Positions 13,306 to 39,088 of a stretch of 64,000 nucleotides of DNA are shown here, in pieces. The first letter of the stretch is position 1, and every line of letters starts with the position of its first letter. Under the pieces are notes generated by a model. That model was not told the origin of the DNA. It did not search any database and saw only the letters and a list, made by a program, of their open reading frames with translations. A program made the translations under genes and the position numbers. This DNA is from an uncultured Verrucomicrobiae bacterium (GTDB taxonomy: Bacteria; Verrucomicrobiota; Verrucomicrobiia; Limisphaerales; UBA11358): the NCBI GenBank assembly GCA_963842445.1, contig CAWJHF010000009.1, positions 20,217-84,216 of the forward strand, in the 5' to 3' direction.

Positions 13306-13320
13306 GGGAGAAAACGTGAA

Positions 13321-19325: not shown

Positions 19326-20516
19326 TCAATCATTCACGGGCGGCCGGCGCGAGACGGTTTTCAGGCCGAGCACGCTCATGAAGAAACTCGAAAAAACACC
19401 CTGAATGCCAAGGATCATGAGCGTCGCCGCCGGAATCAGCCGGCGCAGGTTTTCCTCCGTTGACGGCAGCAGGCCGAAGTGGGCCTGTTGCCAATGCCAT
19501 AGCGCGCGCAGAAATAAAATCGTTCCCACCAGCAACACGACCAGGCCGGCGGCAATTCCCTTTTCCAGCGTGAAAATTTTGAAGACGCGCGTGAGCTTCG
19601 GGTCCTCCGGCAGCAGGCCTTCGGCGATGGCAAAAACCTTGGTGAAAAACGCGAACGCGACGAGCTGAAAACCCACAATGATCGCCATGCACGCCATGAT
19701 CAGCGTGCCGACGTTCAACTGGACGCCGCTGATTTTGAGGTCATTCACCGACAGTGCGGCGGCAAAAATGATTCCCAGCGCCGAGAGCAAAAGTCCCGGC
19801 ACGAGAAACAGCCAGCGCGGCGAGTAAATGAGCATGAACCGCAAATGCCGCCAGCCGTCGCGCCACGGTTTCAAGTGCGGCGGGCGCGAGCGCCCATCCG
19901 GGTGCAGCGTGATGGGCACTTCGGAAATTTTGAATTTCCGGAACGTGGCCTTGATGACCATTTCGGAGGCGAATTCCATGCCCGTCGTCTGCAATTCCAT
20001 TTTTTCAAACGCCGCCCGCGTGAAACCGCGCATGCCGCAATGAAAATCGTGCGCCGGACACTTGAAGAAAAAGCGGCCGATGAACGACAGCACCGGGTTG
20101 CCGAGCCAGCGGTTTTTCCACGGCATCGCGCCGGGTAAAACAGTCCCTCCACCCATCGGCAGCCGGCAGCCCATGACCAGATCAAATCCTTCCTGAAACT
20201 TTTTTACGAAGCCGGTGAGATCGGAAAAATCGTAGCTGTCGTCCGCATCGCCCATGATGATCCATTTGCCGGACGCGGCCTGAATGCCGCCGCGCAGCGC
20301 GCTGCCGTAACCCTTTTCCTTCACTGGCACGACCCGCACCCCCAGGTTTTGGGCGATGGCCTGCGAGCCGTCGGTGCTGCCGTTGTCGGCAATGACGACT
20401 TCACCGGACACGCCGGCGCGTTGAAGGCCGAGCCGCGCCTTTTCGATGCAACGGGCGATGGTCTCGGCTTCGTTCAGGCACGGCATGACGATGCTCAGCT
20501 CAACGGCTTCGGTCAC
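19326..20516 (-). CDS. GT2 glycosyltransferase with C-terminal TM helices (ArnC/GtrB-like polyprenyl-phosphate glycosyltransferase)
   Basis: LSIVMPCLNEAETI ... VIADNGSTDGS ... IIMGDADDSYDF gives the GT2 DxD region. Hydrophobic C-terminal third. Confidence 0.85.
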   Translation of the reverse strand: MTEAVELSIVMPCLNEAETIARCIEKARLGLQRAGVSGEVVIADNGSTDGSQAIAQNLGVRVVPVKEKGYGSALRGGIQAASGKWIIMGDADDSYDFSDLTGFVKKFQEGFDLVMGCRLPMGGGTVLPGAMPWKNRWLGNPVLSFIGRFFFKCPAHDFHCGMRGFTRAAFEKMELQTTGMEFASEMVIKATFRKFKISEVPITLHPDGRSRPPHLKPWRDGWRHLRFMLIYSPRWLFLVPGLLLSALGIIFAAALSVNDLKISGVQLNVGTLIMACMAIIVGFQLVAFAFFTKVFAIAEGLLPEDPKLTRVFKIFTLEKGIAAGLVVLLVGTILFLRALWHWQQAHFGLLPSTEENLRRLIPAATLMILGIQGVFSSFFMSVLGLKTVSRRPPVND

Positions 20517-22442: not shown

Positions 22443-22650
22443 GTCTGATCGGCGCGGTTCAATACCGCCGTTGCATTCGATTTCGTTCATTTGAATCCGT
22501 AAAGCTCTCACGGCAAAACGACCACACTTCGGCCGTTGAATATTAAACTCTCCCAAGAAAAACAGGCAGGGTAAATTCAAATGGAACCGACCTGTGTGCA
22601 TGTCGGCACGATGAACCCGGCCTTCGGTTTCCTGGCGCGCAGCGTTCCGG

Positions 22651-22714
22651 CGTGCGCCGGACATTTGAAGAACAAGCGGCCGATGAACGACAGCACCGGG
22701 TTGGCGAGCGGGCG
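22651..22714 (-). pseudogene. 64-nt relic of the GT2 gene (copy of 20048-20112)
   Basis: Reads RPLANPVLSFIGRLFFKCPAH, compared with RWLGNPVLSFIGRFFFKCPAH in the intact GT2. About 5 mismatches over the stretch. No start codon and no flanking homology on the low-coordinate side. Confidence 0.6.
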
Positions 22715-22720
22715 TTTGGT

Positions 22721-25969: not shown

Positions 25970-26045
25970 AGTAACATGAGTTCTGAACCTAAAATCATTA
26001 CTGATTGGAGCAAAAGGTTACAACCGCGCAAAGGAAGGGCTTCGT

Positions 26046-26366
26046 TTAGACTGTGTGCCTTGGGACATCCCGCGCACCGTGAAGGATGCGGATGATGTGC
26101 AGCCGGCGCGGCGCGGCGGTGACGCGGTAGAAAATCAGATAATTCGCGAACCGCCGCACCGGCCAGAAATGCATCCCGGACAATCCGGCGCGGTTGGATT
26201 CGTAGCGCGGACCAACTTCCGGCCATTGCGCCAGCGTGCGAAAGCTCAAACGCAGCGCATCCAGAAACCGGTCGGCGGCGGCGGGATTGTTCGTCGCGAT
26301 GAACAGATGAATGTCCGCCACGTCGTGAATCGCTTCCCCGGCGCGGATGATTTTAAGCGGCTTCAA
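26046..26366 (-). CDS. parE: type II toxin, RelE/ParE family
   Basis: ...NYLIFYRVTAAPRRLHIIRILHGARDV is a ParE-type C-terminus. Probable TTG start at 26366, overlapping the antitoxin stop by 14 nt. Confidence 0.7.
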   Translation of the reverse strand: MKPLKIIRAGEAIHDVADIHLFIATNNPAAADRFLDALRLSFRTLAQWPEVGPRYESNRAGLSGMHFWPVRRFANYLIFYRVTAAPRRLHIIRILHGARDVPRHTV

Positions 26367-26616
26367 GTTGCTTGAGCTTGCGGCGGGTACGGGCGCGTAT
26401 GCGGTCAAAGTCGGCATCGGTAAGCGGCTTGGCTAGGCTGCGCACGCCGGCAAGAAGCTTGTTATCCAGATCGGGAATGTTCAAAGCGGCCTGCTGCTCG
26501 GCTTTTTCCAAAGCGCGCAGGCCGGCGCGCACCACTTCGCTGGAATTGCCGTAGCGCCCGCTTTCAATCAAATCCCCGACCAGGTCCTCGTAGTATTTGC
26601 TCAAGGCGACGTTCAT
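26353..26616 (-). CDS. parD: type II antitoxin, ParD/CopG (RHH) family
   Basis: MNVALSKYYEDLVGDLIESGRYGNSSEVVRAGLRALE is a ParD-like RHH. Located directly upstream of the toxin. Confidence 0.75.
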   Translation of the reverse strand: MNVALSKYYEDLVGDLIESGRYGNSSEVVRAGLRALEKAEQQAALNIPDLDNKLLAGVRSLAKPLTDADFDRIRARTRRKLKQLEAA

Positions 26617-26665
26617 GGAACCAATCTAAGCCGATAACATTAGGTGTCAATAGCCGTTATTCATC

Positions 26666-26758
26666 AAATTTCCACCACCTGCTTGTATTCCGGCACGAGC
26701 ACCTCGGGTTTCGGCTTCATGGCGCGCAACGTTCCGGCACGGCCCAGCACCCGTGATT
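26666..26758 (-). pseudogene. duplicated 3' end (last ~25 codons plus stop) of the beta-CASP MBL gene
   Basis: Reads ...RAGTLRAMKPKPEVLVPEYKQVVEI-stop, compared with AETLHAMKPKAEVLVPEYKQVVEI-stop at 27432-27524. 9 mismatches in the first 73 nt, decaying beyond that. Confidence 0.75.
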
Positions 26759-26802
26759 TCAACTTCCAATCAGTCCCCGGCTTTGCTATCTTGTCCCTCG
26801 TC

Positions 26803-27021
26803 ATGGTATCGCCACTGGCCAAAACCGCGCGGGTTCAGCGGAAGACCCTTTCCGTTGTGGATTTGCGTGATGACACGCGCACCCGGCGCCACTGGTTGCG
26901 CCAGCCGCCGATAAAGAGGCTTGAAGGGCTGGAATTGTTGCGCCAGAGTGCCCACGCTTATGATCCCGTTACCGCGCGACTTCCAAGACTTCTTAAGGTT
27001 GTTAAACGCAAACGCGATTAG
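26803..27021 (+). CDS. small helical protein, partner of the nucleotidyltransferase
   Basis: 72 aa. ...RRHWLRQPPIKRLEGLELLRQSAHAYDPVTARLPRLLKVVKRKRD resembles (from memory) small proteins found upstream of minimal nucleotidyltransferases. Overlaps the next gene by 62 nt in another frame. Confidence 0.5.
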   Translation: MVSPLAKTARVQRKTLSVVDLRDDTRTRRHWLRQPPIKRLEGLELLRQSAHAYDPVTARLPRLLKVVKRKRD

Positions 27022-27433
27022 GTATCTGGTCATCGGCGGTTATGCCGTGGCCTACCACGGCCACGTCCGTTACACCGGCGACCTCGACATCTTTGTGGAG
27101 CTTTCGATTGACAACGCGGAACGGATTGTCCGCGCCCTGCGCGAATTCGGCTTCGATCTGCCAAAACTGAAACCTGAATTGTTCCTGCGAAAAGGGAAAA
27201 TCGTCCGCATGGGACATGAACCGATGCGGCTGGAAATCCTCAATGAGATTGACGGCGTGAGTTTTGGTGAATGTTACCGGCAACGGTGCATGGCCAGGCT
27301 TGGCGATTTGAAAATCAACTTCATTGACCTGCCGCAGTTGTTGAAAAATAAACGCGCCAGCCGCCGCCCTCAAGATTTGGCCGACATTGCCGCACTGACA
27401 CCCAAGCCGCCGCGCAAAAAGGCCAGGCATTAA
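26960..27433 (+). CDS. minimal nucleotidyltransferase-fold protein (pol-beta superfamily)
   Basis: MIPLPRDFQDFLRLLNANAIRYLVIGGYAVAYHGHVRYTGDLDIFV gives a GG-x13-DxD motif. 157 aa. Confidence 0.7.
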   Translation: MIPLPRDFQDFLRLLNANAIRYLVIGGYAVAYHGHVRYTGDLDIFVELSIDNAERIVRALREFGFDLPKLKPELFLRKGKIVRMGHEPMRLEILNEIDGVSFGECYRQRCMARLGDLKINFIDLPQLLKNKRASRRPQDLADIAALTPKPPRKKARH

Positions 27434-28824
27434 ATCTCCACCACCTGTTTATATTCCGGCACGAGCACTTCGGCTTTCGGCTTCATTGCGTGTAACGTTT
27501 CGGCGTGCGCCAGGCATTGTGATTCCTCGCCGTGGATGCAGACGATTTTTTTGAGGTCGCCGGAGATTTTTCCGACGTATTTCTTCAGTTCATTTTTGTC
27601 CGCGTGGCCGGAGTAGGTGTCCAGCGAAACGATTTTGGCGCGCACGGCCTGCGGTTCGCCAAAAATGTTGACGGGATTCTGTCCGGCCACAATCTGCGCG
27701 CCCAACGTGTGTTCCGCACAAAAGCCGATGAACAGAATCAGATTGCCAGGATCGCCGATGTGGTTTTTGAGATGATGCCGGATGCGGCCCGCCTCGCACA
27801 TGCCCGACGCGCTGATGATGATGGCGGGTTCCCTCAAATCGTTCAGTTTCATAGAATTCGCGACTTCGCGGATGTAAGTGAGATTTTCCATGCCGAACGG
27901 ATTTTCCTTTTCGTGCAGGAACCGGTTGATGGTGTCGTTGAAACATTCCGGGTGCAGACGGTAAATCTCCGTGGCGTTCACGCTCAATGGGCTGTCCACA
28001 AAAATCGGCACGCGCGGCAGTTTCCCCGCCAGCGTGAGCTGGTGCAGCACATAGACAATCTGTTGCGTGCGCCCCACCGAAAACGCCGGGATGATGACCT
28101 TGCCGTTTTGTTTCAAGGTTTCCAGCACCATCCGGCCAACGGTTTCGTCGGCGTCCGTGCGGATGGAATGTTCGCGCCCGCCATAGGTGGATTCAATTTG
28201 AAGATAATCCACGTTTTCGACCGGCTCCGGGTCACGGAGAATTTCGTCATTGCCGCGACCGACATCACCACTGAACAAATAACGGAATTCCCGTCCGCCT
28301 TCCCGGATGTCCAGAACCACCTGCGCCGCGCCGAGAATGTGTCCGGCGTCACGGAACGTCACCGTCACACCGTCGAGCACCGGAAACGGGCGGCCGTAAT
28401 TGAAGGCGACGAATTGCTGGAGCGCTTTCTCGGCGTCGGCTTCGGAATAAAGCGGTTCGACCGGCGGCAGTTTTTGTTTCGCGCGTTTTTTGGAGACGAA
28501 CGCCGCGTCGTCCTTCTGGATCTGTGCGGAGTCCACCAGCATGATGCCGGACAGGTCGCGCGTGGCGAAGGTGCAGTAAATGTTGCCGGCGTAACCCTGT
28601 TTGCACAGGTTGGGCAGATTGCCCGCGTGATCAATGTGCGCGTGGCTCAACACCACGGCGTCCGCCTGCTTCGGGTCGAAGGGAAAGCAGCAGTTGCGCT
28701 GGATGGATTCCTCGCGCCGGCCTTGAAACAACCCGCATTCGAGCAACAACTGCTTGCTGTTGACCTCGAACAGATACATCGAGCCGGTCGTGGTGCGCGT
28801 TGCGCCGAAGAAGTGGATTCGCAT
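27430..28824 (-). CDS. MBL-fold metallo-hydrolase with beta-CASP domain (RNA-metabolising type)
   Basis: ORF 27430..28920; start MRIHFFGATRTTTGSMYLF (28824). HAHIDHAG motif, and a beta-CASP/RMMBL-type C-terminus ...SGHADKNEL. Confidence 0.85.
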   Translation of the reverse strand: MRIHFFGATRTTTGSMYLFEVNSKQLLLECGLFQGRREESIQRNCCFPFDPKQADAVVLSHAHIDHAGNLPNLCKQGYAGNIYCTFATRDLSGIMLVDSAQIQKDDAAFVSKKRAKQKLPPVEPLYSEADAEKALQQFVAFNYGRPFPVLDGVTVTFRDAGHILGAAQVVLDIREGGREFRYLFSGDVGRGNDEILRDPEPVENVDYLQIESTYGGREHSIRTDADETVGRMVLETLKQNGKVIIPAFSVGRTQQIVYVLHQLTLAGKLPRVPIFVDSPLSVNATEIYRLHPECFNDTINRFLHEKENPFGMENLTYIREVANSMKLNDLREPAIIISASGMCEAGRIRHHLKNHIGDPGNLILFIGFCAEHTLGAQIVAGQNPVNIFGEPQAVRAKIVSLDTYSGHADKNELKKYVGKISGDLKKIVCIHGEESQCLAHAETLHAMKPKAEVLVPEYKQVVEI

Positions 28825-28882
28825 GGGGAAAAGATGCTGAAGGAGCAGCCAAAGTCGAGTTCTGAAACGGGGTTTGTGAAAC

Positions 28883-28934
28883 GTGATGCGTGAAACGTGA
28901 AATTGCAAATCACGTTTCACGTTTCACGCATCAC
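28883..28934 (-). terminator. perfect 20-bp hairpin immediately 3' of infA (no U-tract)
   Basis: 28883-28902 pairs perfectly with 28915-28934, leaving a 12-nt loop. Built from GTGAAAC heptamers. Starts 3 nt after the infA stop. The missing T-run makes the terminator role uncertain. Confidence 0.45.
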
Positions 28935-28936
28935 AT

Positions 28937-29155
28937 TCAACTGTGCCGGTAGGTGATGCGCGCCTTGTTCAAATCGTAGGGCGACATTTCAACATTGACC
29001 TTGTCGCCGACGCTGATGCGGATGAAATTTTTCCGCATCTTGCCGGAGATGTGCGCGAGCACCTCATGCCCGTTCGGCAGGGCGACACGAAACATTGTGC
29101 CTGGCAGCACTTGTTTGACGCTGCCGGTCAATTCGATTGGTTCTTCTTTGGGCAC
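28937..29155 (-). CDS. infA: translation initiation factor IF-1
   Basis: ...[59 protein letters not shown] start at 29155 gives the canonical 72 aa. Confidence 0.9.
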
Positions 29156-30460: not shown

Positions 30461-30670
30461 TTATCCACCCGCGACAATCTTGACGATTTCCAGCCGGTCG
30501 CCCGGGTTGAGTTGCCGTTGGGAAAATTCCGACGGCGCGACGGCCTCGCCGTTGTGCTCCACGACCACGCTGCGCGGCAGCAGCTTTTGCGCGACCAGAA
30601 ATTCCTCCAGCGAGCACGGCAGCTTCGCCTCGACCGGCTTTCCGTTGGCGGTGACGAATGCAGCTTTCAA
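30461..30670 (-). CDS. thiS: sulfur carrier protein ThiS (3' copy, possibly restarted from TTG)
   Basis: ...VTANGKPVEAKLPCSLEEFLVAQKLLPRSVVVEHNGEAVAPSEFSQRQLNPGDRLEIVKIVAGG has the C-terminal GG. The only plausible start is the TTG at 30670, overlapping the TGA of the upstream cassette gene. Confidence 0.6.
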   Translation of the reverse strand: MKAAFVTANGKPVEAKLPCSLEEFLVAQKLLPRSVVVEHNGEAVAPSEFSQRQLNPGDRLEIVKIVAGG

Positions 30671-31263
30671 GTTTGCTTCGGCTTGACTCCGCCGCGCAGA
30701 AGTTTTTCCAATTCCGACGCAACGGCCAGTTCGTTTGCCCAACGGCGCAAATAATTTTTGTCCAATGCGCCGCCCTGGACCGAAACAATTCCCGCAGCGT
30801 CGCCGAGTTGCCGTTCGGACGGCGTGATTTGATTCCAATAAAGTTTGTGCAGCAGCACGTCCTCCGCCGTGCCGATCCAGGCCGGCTGGCCGAACAATGT
30901 TATTGGTTTGCGGCGCGCAAACATCTCGCGCTCGAACGGCGCGGGCCGCAACAGCCAGAAATCCACCTTCAACGTCGAGCGCCGGTCAATGGCGTTGAAC
31001 TGATGCGGCGGCTGATACGCGGCGCGCACCGCCAATTCATCCAGAAAAAAATCACCGCTGAAGGCCGCCATTATTTTCGGAACGGCGGACGGCGGCAGTT
31101 GGATGACAAAATTCAAATCGTGCGTCGTGCGTGGAATGCCCCAGAAATTGCTCGCCATCGAGCCGGTGAGCAGATACGCCAGCTCCGAGCGGTTCAAGCG
31201 GCGGAGGCAATCCACCAACAGTTCGCGCTCGGTCACGATGCCCTCGCCAGTTCGAGCCGCCAA
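30667..31263 (-). CDS. minimal nucleotidyltransferase-fold protein (degenerate GS-x13-DxN motif)
   Basis: ...AYLLTGSMASNFWGIPRTTHDLNFVI... has the same spacing as the 26960 protein, but the second acidic residue is N. 198 aa. Confidence 0.65.
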   Translation of the reverse strand: MAARTGEGIVTERELLVDCLRRLNRSELAYLLTGSMASNFWGIPRTTHDLNFVIQLPPSAVPKIMAAFSGDFFLDELAVRAAYQPPHQFNAIDRRSTLKVDFWLLRPAPFEREMFARRKPITLFGQPAWIGTAEDVLLHKLYWNQITPSERQLGDAAGIVSVQGGALDKNYLRRWANELAVASELEKLLRGGVKPKQT

Positions 31264-31436
31264 TGCAGAAACTGCTCCACTTGCGCGTCATCGGCATCGG
31301 GATGCTGCGCGCGGATGCCTTCGCGAGCGATATCGCACGATAACTCATGCAAGTCCAGCGCGATGGCCAGCCGCTCTTCGCCGCTCATTTCGCGGTAACG
31401 CCCAATCTGAAAATCCAGTGCCGCCTGCGGACTCAT
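31233..31436 (-). CDS. small helical protein, partner of the nucleotidyltransferase
   Basis: 67 aa: MSPQAALDFQIGRYREMSGEERLAIALDLHELSCDIAREGIRAQHPDADD... Its ATG (31434-31436) overlaps the TGA of the thiS 5' relic, and it overlaps the next gene by 31 nt. Confidence 0.55.
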   Translation of the reverse strand: MSPQAALDFQIGRYREMSGEERLAIALDLHELSCDIAREGIRAQHPDADDAQVEQFLHWRLELARAS

Positions 31437-31579
31437 GGAATGAATTTAATGCGATTCAATGGAAATGTCACGACCACGCTGCGCGGCAACAGTTTTTGAG
31501 CAATCAGAAATTCCTCAAGCGAGCACGGCAGCTTCGCCTCCACCGGCTTTCCGTTGGCGGTGACGGACGATGGATTCAC
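31433..31579 (-). pseudogene. thiS: thiS 5' fragment (native start plus ~38 codons) displaced by the cassette insertion
   Basis: From the GTG at 31579: (M)NPSSVTANGKPVEAKLPCSLEEFLIAQKLLPRSVVV, then unrelated TFPLNRIKFIP-stop. Confidence 0.7.
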
Positions 31580-31604
31580 ATTTTCAAATCTGTTCTTTAA
31601 TAAA

Positions 31605-31697
31605 CACCGAACATCCCACATCGAACTCTGAACATCGAAGTTATTCGACTACGACACATTAGACGTTCGATGTTCAATGTTGGGTGTTCGATGTTCC
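31605..31697. repeat. imperfect palindrome of inverted heptamer arrays (ATCGAAC / GTTCGAT)
   Basis: Left units accgaac/atcccac/atcgaac/tctgaac/atcgaag. Right units gttcgat/gttcaat/gttgggt/gttcgat/gttcctc. Sits between the thiH stop (31702) and the thiS relic start. Confidence 0.65.
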
Positions 31698-31701
31698 TCA
31701 T

Positions 31702-32904
31702 TTATGCTGTCAACGCCGCGTCCCAATCTTTCCACACCGGCTCGTAGCCAAGTTTGCGGATCAAATCCGCCACTTCGCCGGCGGAACGGTCATCGGCAAT
31801 TTCAAATTGGCCGGTCGCGTTCGTCGCGCGGTTCGGCTGCGGCGCCCATTCGCTGGCACCGGACGCCAGTTCCACAATCCGGCCGCGCACGGTTTGATGC
31901 AGCTTTTCCCTGCCCGCGCCGGTGTAACCGCCCGGCTCAGTGTGGCTGCCCGCGCTCATCATCGTAATGCCCAGCGGGAGCAGGCCGTCGCGCAGTTTCG
32001 ATGATTCGCGCGTCGAAAGCACCAGACCAACGTCGGGAAACATGATGCGCAGGGCGCAGACCAGTAGCGCCAGGTCGCGGTCGCTCATGTGCGTGAGCGG
32101 CTGGAATTCGCCCGCGCACGGACGCAGCCGCGGCAGCGAAATCGTCAACTGCGCCTTCCAGCAATTACGCAACAAATAATCCGCATGCGCGGCAACGCTG
32201 ATGGCTTCAAACCGCCAATCGGCCAGTCCGTAAAGCGGGCTGATGCCGAGCCGGCGGAAACCGGCGGCGTAGGCGCGTTCTGGCGTTTCGAGCCGCCACT
32301 CGAAATTCCGTTTCGGCCCGGCGGTGTGCATGTCCGCATAAACTTTCCGGTCGTAGGATTCCTGATAAACCACCAGCCCGTCCGCGCCCGCCGCAACCAG
32401 CGGCGCGTAGTCGGCAGTTCCCATCGGCCCAACTTCGAGTGAAATGCTTGGCCACTCCGGATGCAGCGCAGCGATGCAGTCGCGCAGGTAATTGTTCGAG
32501 ACAAATTTCGGATGTTCGCCCGCGACGAGCAGGAGGTTCCGGAATCCTTGTGACTTGAGTTCCGCCGCCTCGCGTTTCACTTCGTCCAGCGAGAGCGTCA
32601 CGCGCAGAATCGGGTTGTCGCGCGAGAAACCGCAGTATTGGCAGTTGTTGATGCACTCATTGGAAAGGTAAAGCGGCGCGAACAACCGGATGACCTTGCC
32701 GAACCGCTGCTGCGTCATCATGTGCGATCGCCGGCCCATGTGCTCCAGCAATTCAGCCGCCGCCGGCGAAATCAGGTTCGCAAAATCCGCGAGCGACAGC
32801 CTGGGTTTCGCCAGACTTTCCCGCACCGCCGGCGCACCAGCCGCCAGCGACCGTTGCGCCAGCGACTGCGCCGGCAACGAATTGAACTCGGAGACAAAGC
32901 TCAC
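31702..32904 (-). CDS. thiH: 2-iminoacetate synthase ThiH (radical SAM)
   Basis: LYLSNECINNCQYCGF carries the CxxxCxxC radical SAM cluster. Full-length ThiH-like, 400 aa. Confidence 0.9.
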   Translation of the reverse strand: MSFVSEFNSLPAQSLAQRSLAAGAPAVRESLAKPRLSLADFANLISPAAAELLEHMGRRSHMMTQQRFGKVIRLFAPLYLSNECINNCQYCGFSRDNPILRVTLSLDEVKREAAELKSQGFRNLLLVAGEHPKFVSNNYLRDCIAALHPEWPSISLEVGPMGTADYAPLVAAGADGLVVYQESYDRKVYADMHTAGPKRNFEWRLETPERAYAAGFRRLGISPLYGLADWRFEAISVAAHADYLLRNCWKAQLTISLPRLRPCAGEFQPLTHMSDRDLALLVCALRIMFPDVGLVLSTRESSKLRDGLLPLGITMMSAGSHTEPGGYTGAGREKLHQTVRGRIVELASGASEWAPQPNRATNATGQFEIADDRSAGEVADLIRKLGYEPVWKDWDAALTA

Positions 32905-33001: not shown

Positions 33002-34345
33002 ATGGCACGCAAATTTTCAAAACCGCACCGCGGCGCGTCGTTCATGGTGCTTGGCGTCGGCTCATTCGCGCAGAGCATCGGTGCGGCACTGGCCGACGCC
33101 GGCGCAAGTGTTTCGACCTATCTCACGCGCAATTACGGCCATTTCCCGCCGTCGCTCGTCGGACCCACTTTTTCGCATGGTTCAGTCGCCAGCCCGGTTC
33201 CGCTGATCAAGAAGCATGGCGTTGATGCCGTCATTCCGCAGTCCATTGACTGGGCGCTGGCCCCGTGGGCGGAGGATTTGCTGCAATCGGGCGCCGGCAT
33301 TTTCAGTCCCACGCGCGAGGCGATGCGCATCGAACGCGAACGTGATTTTGCCCGGAAACTGTGTGCCGAGTTCAAAATTCCGTTCCCGCAGGCTTACGTC
33401 GCGTCGAACCGGCTGGAGACCGAAAAAATTCTAACAAATCATCCGCAGCCGTTCGTCATTAAAAACCCGCTCTGCTCGCCGACCAGTCCGATTCACACGA
33501 TTTTGTGCGAGACCATCGAGGATACCCGTGCCTGGCTGCGGCATGTGAATTATGCCGAGGGCGTTTTTTTGCAGGAATACCTTGGACGCGCCGAGGCCGG
33601 ACACATTGCGCTGGTGAGCAGCGGCGAAATTTATTCGCTCGTCACGAACCAGGAATACAAATACGCCTTCAATGGCAACCAGGGCATCGTCGCCGGTGCG
33701 CCGCTGGGCGGCTTGGTCGAGCGCGACGAAAACGACAAATACGGCCTGGCGCGCGAATTGATTCATCCGCTGCTGCCTTGGTTTCGGAAAGTGAATTATC
33801 ACGGCCCGATTCAAGTGACGGCCATCAAAGTAGGACAGGCTTCCAGCCTGTCTCCATCGAAAAAGAAGTTAGAGACAGGCAAGATGCCCGTCCTGCGCGG
33901 CAAATGGCACGTCATCGAATACAACATCCGCATTGGCGTCACCTCCGGCCCGATGATTTTGCGGATGCTCAAAAACCCGGCGGAAATTGTCCTGCAAACC
34001 GCGCGGAACCAAAAACTGGAATTGCAGTTCAATGAAAAATTGAACTTCGGCTGTTCGCTCACGTTGGCGGGTTACGGCTACCCGTTCACGCAGGTGCGCA
34101 GTCCGCACCTGCCGCTCGAAGTGGACGGCCAGTTTGATTGCGATGTGTGGTGGAACGAAGTGGCGCGCGGCGCGGACGGCCAATTGATAGCCACCGGCCA
34201 TCGCATTGCGGACGTGATTGCGCTCGCGCCGAAGCTCGACGCAGCGATTGCGAAGGCTTACGCCAACATTCGCAAAATCCGGGTCGTAGGCAGCTACTTC
34301 CGGACGGACGTTGGACAAAGTTTATGGCCACCGGGGAACGTGTGA
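33002..34345 (+). CDS. PurD-like ATP-grasp protein (phosphoribosylamine--glycine ligase family, divergent)
   Basis: ATP-grasp core (...FVIKNPLCSPTSP..., ...VFLQEYL...) and a PurD-like C-domain (...GHRIADVIALAPKLDAAIAKAYANIRKIRVVGSYFRTDVG). Atypical N-terminus. Confidence 0.65.
   Translation: MARKFSKPHRGASFMVLGVGSFAQSIGAALADAGASVSTYLTRNYGHFPPSLVGPTFSHGSVASPVPLIKKHGVDAVIPQSIDWALAPWAEDLLQSGAGIFSPTREAMRIERERDFARKLCAEFKIPFPQAYVASNRLETEKILTNHPQPFVIKNPLCSPTSPIHTILCETIEDTRAWLRHVNYAEGVFLQEYLGRAEAGHIALVSSGEIYSLVTNQEYKYAFNGNQGIVAGAPLGGLVERDENDKYGLARELIHPLLPWFRKVNYHGPIQVTAIKVGQASSLSPSKKKLETGKMPVLRGKWHVIEYNIRIGVTSGPMILRMLKNPAEIVLQTARNQKLELQFNEKLNFGCSLTLAGYGYPFTQVRSPHLPLEVDGQFDCDVWWNEVARGADGQLIATGHRIADVIALAPKLDAAIAKAYANIRKIRVVGSYFRTDVGQSLWPPGNV
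33830..33898. repeat. 69-nt double-hairpin element inserted in frame in the PurD-like gene
   Basis: gtaggacaggc-ttcca-gcctgtc ... gacaggc-aagat-gcccgtcct. Encodes VGQASSLSPSKKKLETGKMPVLR between IQVTAIK and GKWHVIEYN. Confidence 0.6.
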
Positions 34346-34417: not shown

Positions 34418-36640
34418 TTACCTGGCGATTGACACGCCCAGAGCGCGCAATTGATTTTTGATTTCGGGGGAATCGGGCTTCAACCGCAACGCCGCCTCGT
34501 AGTCCAACGCCGCTTCTGCACGTGCCTTGTCTTTTTCCAGGCCGGGATCGCGAAGAATGGCGTTGGCCAGATTGGTGAAGGTTTCCGGGTCATCCGGTTT
34601 GAGCCACAGGCTTTCACGGAAATGCAGTTCCGCACTCCGCAGGTCGCCTTCCGACTCGAAGTGGGCGGCCCATCTTTGGTGAAGTTTCCGGGTAAATTCC
34701 GCAGTGTCAAAATTCCGCGCCAACCAGACGCCAGCCAGAGCGATGAGCGCAAGCAACAAAACCAAAAATTCAGCAAAGCCGTCCCGCCAAAAACCGGCTC
34801 GATGACAAGCCACGCTGAATCCGGCAAGCAGGACGCACAGTAACAATCCAGTCAACAATATGGCCACCGCGTGATTCAGCAGCAAAAGCGCGTAATAAGA
34901 CAGGCGACCCATTTCCTGGATTTCGCCCACTGCCACCCACGAGTCACGGCTTTGATCGGTGATTTCCAGCCGGAATGGATTTCGGGGAGCGGCGATGGTA
35001 ATCGTATGCCATCGCCCGATGATTTTGGGCGACAGTTTGATTATGCGGCCGGTCTGCTGTTCCACCAACTGGAGGCTGATGCCGTTCGTGCCCGGATCGC
35101 AGCACAACTGGATGTTCAATTCGGGCAGAGTGGCGGAGAGCGGTTGGCTGACAAAATGGCCGGGCGTGGCCGTCTCATTGGTTGAGTAGTTGCCCCACAC
35201 GCGGGTGAATTCCCGCTTGGGTTTTCCAGGCGGATAACCGTCCAAAACAAATGAGGCATCGGAGGTTTCGCCCTTCTCCAGTTTTAATGGCGAACGACAG
35301 GCGGCGGGCATGATGCGCGACAATTTCGGATCACGCAGCGACTCGATGAGCCAGCCGGAGTCCCACGCCGGAATATGCCAGACCGGTTTGTTCTGCAAAT
35401 ACTTGGGATCGCCGGTGGCGACAAACGCACGGACATTTTCCTCCTGAACCAGCCCCAATTGTCTGGTCCATGGCCAATACCCGTCCACCGTCCCGCGATC
35501 CGCGATTGCCCCCCGGGAGATCTGCCACATTCCCGCGAAAACGGAACCTGTCCATACTATGGCGAGCAGCACCGTCAGCCACCTTGAAAACCGGCGAAAC
35601 TCAGCGCCTTGCCAGATGACCAACCAACTCACAAGGCTGGCAATGGGGATGGCGCAATGCATGTCCAGGTAGCGGCTGCTGTTCCCAAGGTTCACGCGCC
35701 CGTATGCCAGAGCTGCTGATTGCAGAAAGCCCCAAAACCCAAAGGCGATAAGAAATTCAGCCGCTCTCGGAGACTTGAAGTCGGACCGGAAATATTCAAC
35801 CACGGTAATGATCAGCGGCAAACAAACGAAGAATGACATGGCCGGCTGATCTCCAAACGGCCACGCCAGATTGCCCGTCAGCGCATCCAAAAATGCCGGA
35901 AATGATTTTGCCTTAAAAGGCTTGTCTCCTTCAACGTTGACATGCAAAAGCAGACCAAAAACAAATACCGCCAGACAGCAACCGAGGGTGATGATCTGTT
36001 TCCGGGCGATGCGTTTTTCTTTCAGCATTCGGACAATCATCAAACCGATGACGGCCAGAGAAGCCAGCAAACCGGAACCCATTGTGACAATGGACATCAT
36101 TGCCGCGGCAAGCCCGAAAAACCAACGGACGCTCCCCGGCGATCCGAATCCCAGCCAGATGATTGCCGCAAGCGCAAAAATGCTCACAAAATACATCTGG
36201 GACTGGAAGCCATGAATCGTATTGTCCATCGCAAAGGGAAACGCGAAAAACGGCGCCAGCAGGAAACAAATCAAGCCTTCCCTTTTTTTGCCCGTCAAAA
36301 CCCACAGGCAATACGCCAAACCGCAGGCAAAGCCGGCGTGGATGAAGGCGTTGATCGTCATCTGCAGCAGCGGATCCCACTGGCCGTTGAGCCGCACCAC
36401 AAAAAGATCCAGCACGCGCGTAAAGAAAATCCTGTGCTCATTGTGTGGTGCGAACAATGCGCCCCACGTCAGATGGCCTTCCAGCCAGGGCTTGAACAAA
36501 AGCCTCGCCTCGGACCATTGATCCCAGTAAGGAATGGCCGTTGCATAAACCTGGATGACCCACAGCTTGGCACCTGCAATCACCAGAAACAACGCCGTCA
36601 GGCACGCGGTCAGCCTTAATTTGGGGTTATTGAACTGCAC
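34418..36640 (-). CDS. large polytopic membrane protein with extracytoplasmic insert and C-terminal TPR-like tail (paralogue B)
   Basis: 740 aa, GTG start at 36640. The N-terminal ~330 aa are collinear with 39030..40742 (LWV(I/V)Q(V/L)Y..., WDQW.EA, HNEHR/INEHR, LQMT/SINAFI). Confidence 0.75.
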   Translation of the reverse strand: MQFNNPKLRLTACLTALFLVIAGAKLWVIQVYATAIPYWDQWSEARLLFKPWLEGHLTWGALFAPHNEHRIFFTRVLDLFVVRLNGQWDPLLQMTINAFIHAGFACGLAYCLWVLTGKKREGLICFLLAPFFAFPFAMDNTIHGFQSQMYFVSIFALAAIIWLGFGSPGSVRWFFGLAAAMMSIVTMGSGLLASLAVIGLMIVRMLKEKRIARKQIITLGCCLAVFVFGLLLHVNVEGDKPFKAKSFPAFLDALTGNLAWPFGDQPAMSFFVCLPLIITVVEYFRSDFKSPRAAEFLIAFGFWGFLQSAALAYGRVNLGNSSRYLDMHCAIPIASLVSWLVIWQGAEFRRFSRWLTVLLAIVWTGSVFAGMWQISRGAIADRGTVDGYWPWTRQLGLVQEENVRAFVATGDPKYLQNKPVWHIPAWDSGWLIESLRDPKLSRIMPAACRSPLKLEKGETSDASFVLDGYPPGKPKREFTRVWGNYSTNETATPGHFVSQPLSATLPELNIQLCCDPGTNGISLQLVEQQTGRIIKLSPKIIGRWHTITIAAPRNPFRLEITDQSRDSWVAVGEIQEMGRLSYYALLLLNHAVAILLTGLLLCVLLAGFSVACHRAGFWRDGFAEFLVLLLALIALAGVWLARNFDTAEFTRKLHQRWAAHFESEGDLRSAELHFRESLWLKPDDPETFTNLANAILRDPGLEKDKARAEAALDYEAALRLKPDSPEIKNQLRALGVSIAR

Positions 36641-36866
36641 GCGGTCCTTCCTTTGATTCCTTTAACACATCCGCTTTGTGTTCGAAAATCGCCGCGCGTT
36701 TGAGGTTATTCACGGATTTGAAATACACCGCTAGTTCGCGTTGCATTCCATATTCAACTGATTCGCGTTGGAGCGAGCGTCTCGACCAGACAAACCCAAG
36801 CGCCGCCAAAACGGCCAGCAAGACGATGATTCCCGCCGGATTTGCCCGCGCCAAACCGAGGGTCCC
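36627..36866 (-). pseudogene. relic 3' end (~79 codons) of a paralogue-A-type membrane protein gene
   Basis: ...LGLARANPAGIIVLLAVLAALGFVWSRRSLQRESVEYGMQRELAVYFKSVNNLKRAAIFEHKADVL... aligns with the C-terminus of 39030..40742 (...LLTLLAALGFVWSKAPIKRATVELTLQSQLADYFKSVNNPERAAFHEHKADEL...). The upstream part of ORF 36627..37145 has no homology. Confidence 0.6.
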
Positions 36867-36879
36867 GCGGGCCAGCCCG

Positions 36880-36958
36880 CATCCGCAAAGACCGGGTCGT
36901 GGGCAGTTACTTCCGGACGGACAGTGGCCAAAGCCTGTGGCCGCCGGGACAGGTTTGA
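36880..36958 (+). pseudogene. relic 3' end (25 codons plus stop) of a PurD-like gene
   Basis: Reads IRKDRVVGSYFRTDSGQSLWPPGQV-stop, compared with IRKIRVVGSYFRTDVGQSLWPPGNV-stop at 34267-34345. 57 of 69 nt are identical. Confidence 0.65.
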
Positions 36959-37075: not shown

Positions 37076-39088
37076 TCATTTTTTGGTGTCCGGTTGCGGA
37101 TAGTCCAATCGGTATAAACGAAGCCGCATTGGCGATTGATAACAAGCCGCCGAGCCGGATTGGGTTAAAGCGAAGACTGTCATAGACGTTACCGTGGCAT
37201 CGGTCAGGCGGCGCTCGTCGTGTGTAGCCAGCGCAATGAACGAGGCGTTGTCGTTGATAAACGGCGACAGCAGGAATCCGCCGCTAGCCATGCCGGGAAC
37301 CAGACGGAAGTACAGTCGTTGACCGTTTCGCAGGGACACTGCCAGCACCAAGGTTGGCGGCTTGTAGAGCGCAGCAATGAATGATCCCAGCAGGGTTTTG
37401 TTTATCTCCAATTCGGCCCAGAGGGCACCGTTGGTCGTCGCTGGCAGCATGACGGGCTCGGCGAAGCGAATGAGCGAATCCTTGAGCGGCACTAAGTGAT
37501 ATTCCCCGGGCGTGGCGGATTTCTTCAAAAGCACAAAATCCCTCGTCGTGCCTTGGACGTTGTATCGGGTCAAAAGTTCCGGCCAAGATCGGCCGTCATC
37601 GAGTGAAGGGTATCGCCCATCCAATGTTCGGAGGGTGAATAGAACATTGTCAGCAGTGCGCCCGACGCGCAGATAGGCCGCGTTCATTTCGGCCAGGGCC
37701 AGTGTGTAGGCGGAATAGCTTTGGAAGACAGGTCGCGGCGTATAACGCAAACCGTGGGCGAAGATGACGACTTGATCCCAAGGATATACATCCACTGTAC
37801 CACCTAATTCCGGCAGGGGATACGCATCACGGATTTCAGCAAGGCGATTTTCATACGCGGTTTTCATGGCATTCGCCTCGTAAAGCAGCTTTGCCGGAGA
37901 CAGGACGATACGGGGATCGAATGTTTCGACGAAGCGCATGAACAAACCCTTTCCCGGAACGCAACGGTTAAACGCCAGGAAGGCATACATCAAAATGACG
38001 ATACCCAGCAACCAGCCCATCAGCATGGTTTTCCTGCTTCTGTTTCGCAAAAACGGTTGCGCCGCCCCCAAACCCAACAAACCAATTAACAACACCGTGA
38101 GTACTGCCTCGGATTCGTGTTGGTCATGCCTGACAAAGCCGTGCTTGAAGGCAAGGAAAAGCACAAGTCCCAAACCGATCAACGGCAACGTGCCAAACCA
38201 TCTATATTTCGTGGACGCCGCCATGCCTATCGGGACACACGCTCCGGCGGCGGCCAGCCAAAAAACCACTGCGTCCCGAAGTTCCGTTCCCCCGCCGGTC
38301 ATCATCGCCTCGGTGTAACCACTGGTGATCCGCCATGAATTGCATAAAAACGGCCCGAACGAACTCAAGCGTTGTCCGGCAGCCAGCCAGAAGAAAAGTA
38401 CACTGAGGCCAAACACGGCTAACAGCCAAGGAATCCGGCAACGTCGCAATACGTCATCCGCCGCAATAGTGAGCACAATTCCCCCCGCCATCAGCAAGCC
38501 GGTAAACTTGGTCAACCCCAACAAAGCCAGCGATATCACCAACAGGATTTTTATCATCGAGAATGCGGTGTCATTCACAAAAAAGTGCAGGAACAACAAA
38601 ATTAAAACCCAGGCATCCAGTCGAACGTCGAAATCCTGATCCACCGGCAACCCTGTGACGCCGATGCATCCTATCATCCACAACCATGCCACGGATTCAT
38701 GCATCCAGAAACGGCGGGCCATCTGCCAGAGGCACCACCATAAAACGATCGCCAGTGTCATCCATACCATCGTGGAAACCATGAATGTCGGCGGATAGTA
38801 CCCGCCGCACAAAAATCCCCATGGCCCAAAGGTAAAGACGAGATCGCGTCCGAACTGCAGATGTTGGACAAAGGCGAAATGCAACGTTTGCACCCAGGAT
38901 TCATCTAGGGTGTAAACCGGACTATGGCCAGGAGGCGAACAAGGCACGAAACGCGAGATGGTGTAAGCCAGTGTAGTCAACCCAACCAGCCAATGAACCG
39001 GGAACCACGTCCGGAGCCACATTTTGGAATCAGTGGGCGGCATGCGATTCCTCCATTGCCGCTCGTAGCTCATCGGCCTTATGTTCAT
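37076..39088 (-). CDS. large polytopic membrane protein with C-terminal soluble domain (unknown family)
   Basis: 670-aa ORF with many TM segments followed by a ~270-aa hydrophilic C-terminal region. Start uncertain (Met codons at 39088, 39073, 39043, 39022). Confidence 0.7.
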   Translation of the reverse strand: MNIRPMSYERQWRNRMPPTDSKMWLRTWFPVHWLVGLTTLAYTISRFVPCSPPGHSPVYTLDESWVQTLHFAFVQHLQFGRDLVFTFGPWGFLCGGYYPPTFMVSTMVWMTLAIVLWWCLWQMARRFWMHESVAWLWMIGCIGVTGLPVDQDFDVRLDAWVLILLFLHFFVNDTAFSMIKILLVISLALLGLTKFTGLLMAGGIVLTIAADDVLRRCRIPWLLAVFGLSVLFFWLAAGQRLSSFGPFLCNSWRITSGYTEAMMTGGGTELRDAVVFWLAAAGACVPIGMAASTKYRWFGTLPLIGLGLVLFLAFKHGFVRHDQHESEAVLTVLLIGLLGLGAAQPFLRNRSRKTMLMGWLLGIVILMYAFLAFNRCVPGKGLFMRFVETFDPRIVLSPAKLLYEANAMKTAYENRLAEIRDAYPLPELGGTVDVYPWDQVVIFAHGLRYTPRPVFQSYSAYTLALAEMNAAYLRVGRTADNVLFTLRTLDGRYPSLDDGRSWPELLTRYNVQGTTRDFVLLKKSATPGEYHLVPLKDSLIRFAEPVMLPATTNGALWAELEINKTLLGSFIAALYKPPTLVLAVSLRNGQRLYFRLVPGMASGGFLLSPFINDNASFIALATHDERRLTDATVTSMTVFALTQSGSAACYQSPMRLRLYRLDYPQPDTKK

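Follow-up and report, generated by a model that had tools for sequence, protein, structure and literature searches.

Nobusato et al. reportedly described, in 2000 (Gene 259:99), the insertion of restriction-modification (R-M) gene complexes with a long target duplication. Long and variable target duplications formed without mobility genes are known for R-M systems (Furuta, Abe & Kobayashi, 2010, PMC2853133; reviewed in PMC3874152), and the authors tied them to DNA breakage by the R-M enzymes (PMC2853133). How chromosomal toxin-antitoxin (TA) modules move is an open question: most of them lie in tiny islets without mobility genes, and recent work invokes only recombination at the core genes on either side (PMC13617665). 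Here, a locus is described in a 64,000-nt stretch of DNA (hereafter the window) from an uncultured bacterium of the Limisphaerales (Verrucomicrobiota; assembly GCA_963842445.1, contig CAWJHF010000009.1), where a putative two-gene TA cassette occupies the stop codon of a beta-CASP metallo-beta-lactamase (MBL) RNase gene and is bracketed by two copies of the end of that gene. We consider it highly probable that this is a TA-type cassette inserted with long target duplication at a recurrent hotspot.

Other described systems also bear on the locus. TA islets are tiny, contain TA genes only, lack mobile-element genes and show fast turnover, with recombination at the core genes that flank them (Belot et al., 2026, PMC13617665); this study, the most recent on TA acquisition, reports islets devoid of mobility genes and one duplicated palindrome of 24 bp. 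During transformation, alternative pairing and interchromatid integration give rise to duplications by which a gene that a cassette has struck is retained in intact form as well (Johnston et al., 2013, PMC3784515). As for the cargo, the MenAT1 module of M. tuberculosis consists of MenT1 (Rv0078A), a toxin that adds CMP (cytidine monophosphate) to tRNA 3' ends, and of MenA1 (Rv0078B), a helical antitoxin of 68 aa that is encoded upstream and blocks MenT1 (PMC10435456). Full-text literature searches turned up no account of TA modules flanked by long duplications of a gene terminus, nor of insertion with long target duplication for such modules.

The host gene (27430-28824, minus strand) encodes a protein of 464 aa with Pfam matches to Beta-Casp (3e-39), RMMBL and Lactamase_B. 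Among NCBIfam models, it matches best the beta-CASP model of the type VII CRISPR protein Cas14, at 409 bits against a cutoff of 800; as the score is far under that cutoff, the gene is taken to encode a general beta-CASP RNase and not a Cas protein. The 3' end of this gene is duplicated. A repeat search of the window paired 26662-26758 with 27428-27524 as a direct repeat of 97 nt and 80% identity, and the best stretch found by self-blastn spans 77 nt at 87.0% (E 9.9e-20). In each copy, the minus strand carries the last ~31 codons of the MBL gene plus a stop. The functional copy (27428-27524, minus strand) ends in TAA and is joined directly to the cassette, while the relic copy (26662-26758, minus strand), with its TGA at 26664-26666, is the former native gene end. 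Their translations run ...SRVLGRAGTLRAMKPKPEVLVPEYKQVVEI (relic) and ...SQCLAHAETLHAMKPKAEVLVPEYKQVVEI (functional end), each closed by the stop codon. Along the MBL coding strand the copies differ at 19 of the 97 nt; nine of these mismatches lie in the 73 nt nearest the stop, and over the innermost 25 nt the similarity is down to 60%. The preliminary description of this DNA, made from the letters alone, had recognized the relic as a repeat of the MBL 3' end and stop, had given both translations and had counted nine mismatches in the first 73 nt with decay beyond; recomputation agrees on every point, and the blastn alignment is the significant match between the copies on which that description had made its claim depend. 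It had also made the claim depend on independent assemblies. In these the relic is present as well: a short-read contig from Logan (ERR11523656, 961 nt) is 100% identical to window positions 26596-27556, spanning both copies, and the layout is repeated in two independent metagenome-assembled genomes (MAGs; L007 and L010) and in metagenome contigs (L178-L186).

The insert itself (26759-27427) measures 669 nt, about 0.67 kb. Open reading frame (ORF) calls confirmed the earlier statement that only two ORFs, one of 72 aa and one for a 157-aa nucleotidyltransferase (NTase) of the GG-x13-DxD type, lie between the copies; both are on the plus strand. The first (26803-27021) encodes a small partner, a putative antitoxin, and overlaps by 62 nt the start of the second (26960-27433), which encodes a minimal NTase with a GG-x13-DLD motif, a putative MenT1-like toxin. 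The TAA of the NTase gene (27431-27433, plus strand) interlocks with the TAA of the MBL gene (27430-27432, minus strand), exactly as first described. The catalytic motif of the NTase is seen in the sequence as GGYAVAYHGHVRYTGDLD and conforms to the G[GS]-x9-13-DxD pattern. All Pfam matches of this protein are below threshold (AbiEii, PF08843, 13.5 bits against a cutoff of 22.5; DUF6036, 16.4 against 23.6; DUF2204, 14.6 against 20.3), and PADLOC gives weak AbiEii matches (E 2e-4). The family is large, with 3630 homologues at E <= 1e-5, some of which carry precomputed matches to PF09970 or PF19502. A profile built from 26 members matched a single family of solved structures, that of MenT1 (8an4, E 0.0045), across the GG...DLD region. 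An AlphaFold2 model of the NTase reached a predicted local distance difference test (pLDDT) of 86; when it was compared with the PDB by Foldseek, the top five matches were all MenT1 or MenAT1 chains (E 5e-5 to 5e-4, TM-scores 0.56-0.65), headed by entries 8an4/8an5 (E 5e-5, TM-scores 0.62-0.65).

The 72-aa ORF is not a chance ORF, since an equivalent small gene lies upstream of the NTase gene and overlaps its start in 64 of 66 metagenome loci and shares the motif W..S..ERL.ALE.LR...YGYDP...RLQRV. It matched no Pfam family, and hhalign detected no similarity between it and the MenA1-like protein encoded elsewhere in the window (probability 1%); its identification as a MenA1/Rv0078B homologue was therefore dropped, having found no backing from either Pfam or hhalign. 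With MenAT1 (PMC10435456) the cassette shares a minimal NTase of ~160-200 aa preceded by the gene of an antitoxin of ~70 aa, and the model of the NTase superposes best on MenT1; moreover, the small protein of a sister cassette in the window (see below) belongs to the MenA1 Pfam family. It differs in that the NTase is only 22-24% identical to MenT1 with all its Pfam matches sub-threshold, and in that the 72-aa partner belongs to an unannotated family outside PF18993 and without detectable similarity to MenA1. On this basis the insert is best read as a two-gene TA module of the MenT/AbiEii nucleotidyltransferase type, of which toxicity would be a predicted property; by analogy with MenAT1, the NTase may extend tRNA 3' ends by nucleotides and may in turn be blocked by its small helical partner. 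In one carrier (L007:11395-11865) the NTase gene is frameshifted near codon 29 and the small partner is intact; this probable toxin pseudogene agrees with the toxin erosion reported for chromosomal TA systems (PMC13617665). Plasmid-borne homologues exist in cyanobacteria, Acidobacteriota and Bacteroidota. Carriage by phages was also considered and set aside, as pattern-matching stretches from IMG/VR encoded no relative.

Insertion with long target duplication, as known for R-M systems, is the closest described analogue, and the locus resembles it in every respect but the cargo. In both cases, the insert is a small addictive module without a mobility gene (here 669 nt, hence below 20 kb, and free of transposase, integrase and phage genes); direct repeats of tens to hundreds of bp (here 97 nt, above 30 bp) stand against a single copy in the empty genome; the length of the duplication varies between events (here 32-97 nt at the MBL gene, 115 nt at thiS, and 72, 283, 329 and 27-337 nt elsewhere); and flanking repeats are significantly commoner than at average positions. 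The differences are that the cargo consists here of TA pairs (MenT-like NTase, ParDE, RelE-type, DUF4926/DUF6883 and DUF2442/DUF4160), that the duplicated target is in many cases the coding end of a conserved gene, left intact thanks to the duplication, that one stop codon has a stack of several cassettes, each with a relic of its own, and that the host belongs to an uncultured lineage of the Verrucomicrobiota (Limisphaerales). Chromosomal integron arrays are similar in a different way: they, too, consist of small promoter-carrying cassettes, often TA pairs, stacked at a fixed point and separated by a recurring sequence of ~60-140 nt. However, no intI gene lies beside the array described here (MBL and yajQ adjoin it in all loci), the recurring sequence is a host gene end and not an imperfect palindrome, and the lengths of the spacer copies vary with the cassette. 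TA islets (PMC13617665) and transformation duplications (PMC3784515) resemble the locus in having recombination in flanking homology as a vehicle and in the preservation of an intact gene copy; unlike in TA islets, the homology arms are here two ~95-nt copies of one gene end, carried along with the cassette or beside it, and unlike the 100-900 kb of transformation duplications, the scale is ~0.1 kb.

The yajQ-MBL neighbourhood, for which the preliminary description had proposed comparative genomics, was compared across 80 orthologous MBL loci from Limisphaerales MAGs (referred to by L numbers), in which empty, single and stacked states were found. The sequence past the MBL stop differs in nearly every close relative, and in all loci the array is enclosed by the MBL RNase gene and yajQ. 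A clean empty site is seen in L006, where the MBL gene and the convergent yajQ have stops only 1 nt apart; a single MBL end is present in L001, L006, L009 and many other relatives. The NTase cassette occurs with common junctions in the window, L007, L010 and L178-L186. In L010 and L186 the order is MBL, NTase cassette, relic and yajQ, while L007 and L178-L185 have the arrangement of the window, with a parDE pair past the relic; in L186 only the ~45 cassette-proximal nt of the relic are left. Four relatives (L002, L005, L008 and L049) carry the MBL gene, parDE and then an MBL relic of 86 nt, and decayed relics of the parDE type, 45-35 nt long, are found in L007, L013, L017 and L024. With the relics of 32 nt and 63 nt that go with further cassette types, relic length is 32, 63, 86 or 93-97 nt according to the cassette: every copy of the MBL end stops at the stop codon, its inner boundary varies by cassette type, and the last ~32 nt of the gene are nearly invariant across copies. 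Three to four MBL-end copies follow each other in L005 and L007, and a DUF2442/DUF4160 pair lies between two MBL-end relics in L005. The MBL stop is thus a multi-use hotspot, found in states from empty to stacked cassettes with MBL-end relics, at which at least four cassette types occur; others are found at yajQ and thiS in relatives. For the inserts of L001, L008 and L009, picking ORFs by their GC content at third codon positions (GC3) found nothing; this route to annotation was dropped, and their cargo is unannotated.

The parDE pair next to the relic belongs to the same history. ParD (26353-26616, minus strand; PF03693, 2.5e-9, 37.9 bits against a cutoff of 21; TIGR02606, 2.3e-16, 59.6 against 46.2) and ParE (26046-26366, minus strand, 106 aa as called in the ENA record; PF05016, 3.7e-13, 50.3 bits against a cutoff of 23) both score above the curated cutoffs and form an operon with the antitoxin first. 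A promoter-like site, TTGACA-16-TAGATT (26623-26650, minus strand), is located directly past the stop of the relic. A second MBL relic was sought past parE in the window and is absent. The region has been replaced: the 86-nt relic and the repetitive extragenic palindromic (REP) hairpin that come after parE elsewhere give way to 76 nt of unrelated sequence, and at 25970-26075 the C-terminus of ParE reads ...RHTV, unlike that of all relatives (...QILD or ...QVLG). Because an MBL relic belonging to parDE persists in L002, L005, L007, L008 and L049, the pair is an earlier cassette of this type; the relic that went with it has been lost from the window. The preliminary description had placed a parDE pair immediately beside the relic; the adjacency holds, but the pair is more than a mere neighbour, given that it carries its own MBL relic in relatives.

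Some additional structures were observed at and around the hotspot. In one relative (L012:11393-11420) a relic of the yajQ end adjoins the MBL stop, the real yajQ being 6.5 kb off. REP-like inverted repeats built of AACATCGAACATC-type units, and of GTGAAACGTGA units upstream of the MBL gene, occupy intergenic positions of the window (31600-31705 and 28875-28937), and REP-like repeats come after several MBL relics (L002, L005, L007 and L024). Genes for IS200-like Y1 transposases, possibly associated with REP sequences, are found inside the MBL-yajQ hotspot of L005 and L024. A third, decayed copy of the MBL end (22588-22665, minus strand; 78% over 78 nt, E about 1e-5) is part of a chimeric relic (22588-22717) that lies upstream of a gene for a 718-aa membrane protein, 4 kb from the MBL gene, in a highly variable region of glycosyltransferase and membrane-protein genes. 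Its other part, 67 nt long, is a 91% copy of an internal fragment (20048-20114) of the glycosyltransferase gene at 19326-20516, and the join between the two lies in a shared 15-nt patch, AATGYCYGGCGCACG.

As to which of the two copies in the window is native, the relic is read as the displaced native MBL end and the working end as having arrived with the cassette, because of the match of the relic to the closest relative, the position of the parDE promoter and the lack of a close relative for the functional copy. Over its last 70 nt the relic shares 93% identity with the functional end found in the closest relative (L001), versus 87% with the functional copy of the window. No relative comes closer to the functional copy than 87-88%, in contrast to the remainder of the MBL gene, which is 92-95% identical to L001-L003; the window departs from this clade over roughly the last 200 nt of the gene. 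Past the relic, the parDE promoter is placed just as it is past the functional end of the parDE-only relatives L002, L008, L024 and L049. The MBL gene as a whole is a recombination mosaic among Limisphaerales, the nearest relative changing along the gene.

Evidence for movement comes from two sources. Among the three MAG carriers (the window, L007 and L010) nucleotide identity is 93-94% for the cassette versus 84-89% for the MBL gene, and divergence at four-fold sites, based on small counts, is 0.16-0.22 for the NTase gene versus 0.24-0.33 for the MBL gene. The contigs that encode an identical NTase give the stronger evidence. Over 1083 aligned positions, L178 and L179 are identical except for one single-nucleotide polymorphism near the 3' end of the NTase gene and 16 differences within the 87-nt functional MBL end; between L178 and L183 no difference is found at 843 positions (cassette, functional end and MBL gene), against 30 differences at the 240 positions of the relic and parD. 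The limits of the identical blocks are the inner edges of the two repeat copies, as expected from crossovers in or beside the copies, and a cassette of ~640-680 nt, 100% identical in L178, L179 and L183, thus lies between flanking copies that differ by 12-18%. As the alleles of L178 and L179 differ within the ~87-nt functional end, the C-terminal ~30 residues of the RNase are exchanged as a unit in natural populations. In alignment columns 930-1016 these two alleles are of the RAMKP type and the RQMKP type, and the latter is known in other lineages. Furthermore, the same cassette is found with parDE downstream and without it (L010 and L186); the nucleotide identity of parDE, for its part, tracks that of the MBL gene.

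The preliminary description had seen in the recurrence of the layout a class of cassettes that target gene ends. Its interpretation is partly supported. The discrete partner/NTase cassette bracketed by a duplicated MBL end stands, and the recurrence of the pattern beyond a one-off is well supported, with at least four cassette types at the MBL gene and further cases at yajQ, thiS, pheT, an antiporter gene and gpx. In Limisphaerales relatives, a ParE/RelE-type pair lies between 76-nt repeats of 95% identity (L075), a DUF4926/DUF6883 pair between two copies of the yajQ 3' end (L031; 63 nt, 94%; 12641-12703 and 13293-13355) and a DUF2281-like gene behind a thiS 5' relic (L020). Outside them, direct repeats of 27-337 nt bracket 12 loci of distant homologues of the NTase cassette (44-75% identity) from unrelated metagenomes; counted within a 1.5-kb span, repeats flank 7 of 51 cassettes versus 7 of 607 control positions of the same loci, a ~12-fold enrichment. 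Closer homologues (74-80%) on long contigs show duplications in four of nine contexts, at other host genes. At pheT the last 23 codons are duplicated (72 nt, 81%), convergent with the NTase gene exactly as at the MBL gene; the other three are 329 nt that take in the 5' end of a proton-antiporter gene and the DNA upstream of it, 283 nt in the purS neighbourhood, and at least 99 nt of a gene for a phosphoenolpyruvate (PEP)-utilising enzyme. A homologous cassette at gpx is flanked by a 68-nt duplication of the 5' end of that gene. What is duplicated is in some cases a 5' end together with upstream DNA, in others an internal gene segment or apparently non-coding sequence directly behind the stop codon of a gene. 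When the cassettes at MBL, pheT and gpx were compared, only the two ORFs proved common; the ends differ and no terminal repeats were found, and a transposon-like element with defined ends was rejected on these grounds. Targeting in the strict sense is the part of the earlier claim that is not supported, the duplications being 27-337 nt long, some targets non-terminal and the cassettes devoid of common ends. Since terminal sequences are not shared and duplications vary, a long variable target duplication fits better than a site-specific targeting machine.

A second insertion in the window, 3.5 kb away at thiS, had been described as built alike, with a small partner, an NTase and a duplicated end. 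The likeness is borne out, since the repeat is real and the NTases are homologous by hhalign; the duplication spans the 5' end of thiS and not a 3' end. The repeat pairs 30560-30674 with 31469-31583 (115 nt, 87%; best 97 nt at 92.8%, E 2e-34, by repeat search and self-blastn). The copy at 30560-30674 (minus strand) is the functional 5' end of thiS (30461-30669; TIGR01683), and that at 31469-31583 (minus strand) is a relic of ~33 codons with the native GTG start (MNPSS...), located behind a REP-like hairpin downstream of thiH. Between them lie a gene for a small antitoxin of the MenA1/Rv0078B type (31233-31436, minus strand, 67 aa; PF18993, 1.2e-10, 41.7 bits against a cutoff of 27.1) and one for an NTase-like protein of 198 aa (30667-31263, minus strand). 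The stop codon of the NTase-like gene shares bases with the TTG at which the functional thiS begins. This overlap, cTTGA, gives thiS a cassette-derived N-terminus, MKAAF, and the relic keeps the native MNPSS. The 198-aa protein matched nothing in the PDB by sequence; it is linked to the 157-aa NTase family only by hhalign, at a probability of 82% (E 1e-5) over the NTase catalytic core, and it has DLN where the family has DLD, the second catalytic Asp being replaced. The thiS insert is best read as a MenAT1-like TA module, again with toxicity as a predicted property.

The interpretation that we regard as probable is that a TA module sits at the MBL stop between a displaced native end and an imported functional end, after an illegitimate founding event, and that it was spread by host recombination and retained by addiction. 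At the founding, an illegitimate join by microhomology or template switching, with no element-encoded enzyme, would have duplicated tens to hundreds of bases of the target; template switching in particular is a tentative choice for this step. An illegitimate founding is compatible with the microhomologies at the junctions, of which AATCAC at the edge of the relic is one. The last ~95 nt of the native gene would then survive as a relic beside the older parDE cassette, while a second copy of the end, joined to the cassette, would keep the RNase gene intact, its TAA also supplying the stop of the NTase gene. Because the MBL and yajQ stops are 1 nt apart in the empty state, only insertions that regenerate the gene end would be viable at such a tight junction of convergent genes. 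Successive events would stack cassettes, each followed by a relic of the MBL end. The two copies could from then on act as homology arms through which host homologous recombination moves the cassette among relatives; that this is the main vehicle of spread we hold to be an evenly balanced question. Alternative pairing during transformation would be an experimentally validated route to such outcomes (PMC3784515). Recombination between the copies would delete the insert, and TA addiction would counter-select this loss, which would account both for the persistence of unstable repeat-flanked inserts and for the bias of the cargo to TA pairs. Homology-facilitated illegitimate recombination was rejected as the founding event, as it needs a donor that already bears the cassette next to the same gene; it can explain spread but not the first insertion at a new target.

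One feature of the junction is a perfect repeat of 10 nt, GCCAGGCATT, which brackets the functional MBL end and is kept in the carriers L007 and L010. Its first copy (27422-27431, plus strand) comprises the last NTase codons, for ARH, and the first base of the stop; the second (27509-27518, plus strand) is inside the MBL gene, at the inner edge of the duplicated segment. The 64 kb contain exactly these two copies, against 0.28 expected. The tail of the NTase looks MBL-derived, given that other members of its family end otherwise (e.g., in KKP or RRKKQS before the stop). The origin may have had two steps, an insertion inside the MBL gene near position -84 and a subsequent restoration of its end, with GCCAGGCATT as the scar. 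Reading the exact founding event from GCCAGGCATT was given up, because several multi-step scenarios are workable and there is no way to choose among them.

A number of points weigh against the interpretation of an addictive module spread by host recombination. The roles of putative toxin and antitoxin and the tRNA target are assigned by inference, all Pfam matches of the NTase are under the curated cutoffs and the small partner lacks homology to MenA1. The founding mechanism is deduced and not seen directly. A recombinase could act in trans from elsewhere in the genome, the view being that of a 64-kb window. The bracketing by GCCAGGCATT is not predicted by a simple one-step model. The relics of the NTase and parDE cassettes start only ~7-11 nt apart in the MBL gene, which could hint at a preferred site, and the chimeric relic is joined within the same 15-nt patch as these starts, leaving some room for a site preference. 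At four-fold sites the excess of MBL over cassette divergence is modest and built on small counts, and an ancient insertion that was lost repeatedly could underlie much of the patchiness among MAGs.

The last point leads to the alternative that survives best, although we judge it unlikely: each structure would go back to a single ancient replication error (a tandem duplication or template switch), followed by vertical descent and repeat-mediated loss, and the differences of the flanks would result from ordinary recombination of the MBL gene. Vertical descent is consistent with parDE identity following that of the MBL gene, and the shared junctions of all NTase-cassette carriers are consistent with one founding event; the MBL gene is visibly mosaic, precise loss through the repeats is easy, and tandem paralogue expansions with relics of neighbouring genes exist in the same window (34267-34335 and 36880-36948). 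These arguments meet several obstacles. Vertical descent does not account well for identical cassettes of ~640-680 nt between flanks differing by 12-18% with breakpoints at the repeat edges, for a cassette less diverged than the MBL gene at all sites and at four-fold sites alike, for a functional end that appears foreign to the lineage next to a relic that appears native, or for the presence of one cassette both with and without downstream parDE (L010 and L186); and the duplications of other genes that flank the family in unrelated bacteria would require many independent insertions.

We regard as somewhat less likely still a site-specific cassette system of integron-like or IMEX-like (integrative mobile element exploiting Xer) kind, in which the ~95-nt MBL end would be an attachment site, circles would move in and out by means of a tyrosine or serine recombinase encoded elsewhere, and the newest cassette would stand next to the gene. 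Such a system would account for the exact ending of all copies at the stop codon, for arrays separated by copies of the same segment, for the near invariance of the last ~32 nt and for the perfect 10-nt repeat around the functional copy; it would also suit the closeness of the NTase and parDE relic starts, with a third junction (the glycosyltransferase or GT396 chimera) in the same 15-nt patch. Against it stand the dependence of relic length on cassette type, the duplication of unrelated targets of 27-337 nt by homologous cassettes elsewhere and the lack of a terminal sequence common to the cassettes. An integron attC site was considered and rejected: on both strands, both copies of the repeat gave z-scores of -0.09 to +1.76 versus shuffles, hence no single-strand structure (no z below -0.1). 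Nor is there a recombinase gene in or beside any array, barring the occasional IS200-like Y1 transposase (L005 and L024), a class that, to our knowledge, does not produce such duplications.

Far less probable is a mechanism like that of diversity-generating retroelements (DGRs) or of silent pilin copies, with the relic as a template or donor that varies the C-terminus of the RNase. The nearness of a diverged 3'-end copy recalls the template and variable repeats of DGRs, 10 of the 19 mismatches are at A positions of the functional copy, and otherwise near-identical contigs of one population differ in the ~87-nt functional end. However, none of the ORFs between and beside the copies encodes a reverse transcriptase, and the mismatches at A positions are, with few exceptions, A-to-G transitions and not A-to-N, on which grounds a DGR template/variable repeat was ruled out; in addition, the protein differences are conservative, unrelated cassettes lie between the copies in different genomes, and neither functional allele of L178 and L179 copies the local relic. 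Finally, an assembly artefact, in which a chimeric join or the collapse of strain variants would have simulated a duplication, can be dismissed with near certainty, for although the source is a metagenome-assembled contig and strain mixtures exist (two alleles of the functional end occur in related samples), the independent Logan contig matches both copies and the cassette without a difference, the same layout recurs in more than 10 independent contigs or MAGs of other samples, and 19 differing positions do not suit a collapsed repeat.

The interpretation of an addictive module inserted with long target duplication bears on the movement of TA modules in general. It supplies a sequence signature, long variable target duplications, often of a gene terminus, enriched ~12-fold around one widespread cassette family, that is simple enough for genome-wide searching. 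The hotspot offers a natural time series, from the empty site through single cassettes to stacked cassettes with decaying relics and an eroded toxin, and the identical cassettes between divergent flanks, broken at the repeat edges, are population snapshots of it. Insertion with long target duplication would thereby be extended from R-M systems to a second class of addictive genes. Its occurrence around NTase, ParE/RelE and other TA pairs argues that addiction, and not DNA cleavage, is the common factor, and suggests that this mode of duplication belongs to addictive modules generally and not to DNA-cutting enzymes. The layout, recurring across cassettes, genes and bacteria, is read as a general recombinase-free route for the entry and movement of such modules. 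The more than 3600 NTase homologues with their conserved small partner make up a large unannotated two-gene family, a probable MenT-like TA system. A more speculative proposal, which we put forward with considerable reserve, is that TA cassettes form integron-like arrays without a recombinase, in which copies of host gene termini would serve as portable homology arms for excision, transfer and re-insertion, by the recombination system of the host, into any related genome that has the gene, regardless of the sequence downstream of it, in which addiction would protect the otherwise unstable insert, and in which relics may be silent donors for the C-terminal ~30 residues.

A gene-end repeat of another kind is present elsewhere in the window. 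The last 69 nt (34267-34335) of an ATP-grasp gene (33002-34345) are repeated at 83% identity at 36880-36948, 2.6 kb downstream and beyond a gene for a 740-aa membrane protein (34418-36640). The next genes (37076-39088 and 39030-40742) encode similar large membrane proteins, and the segments 36668-36827 and 39071-39230 are 69% identical. This repeat looks like a tandem duplication that carried along a piece of the neighbouring gene, which would mean that gene-end relics arise without TA cargo too.

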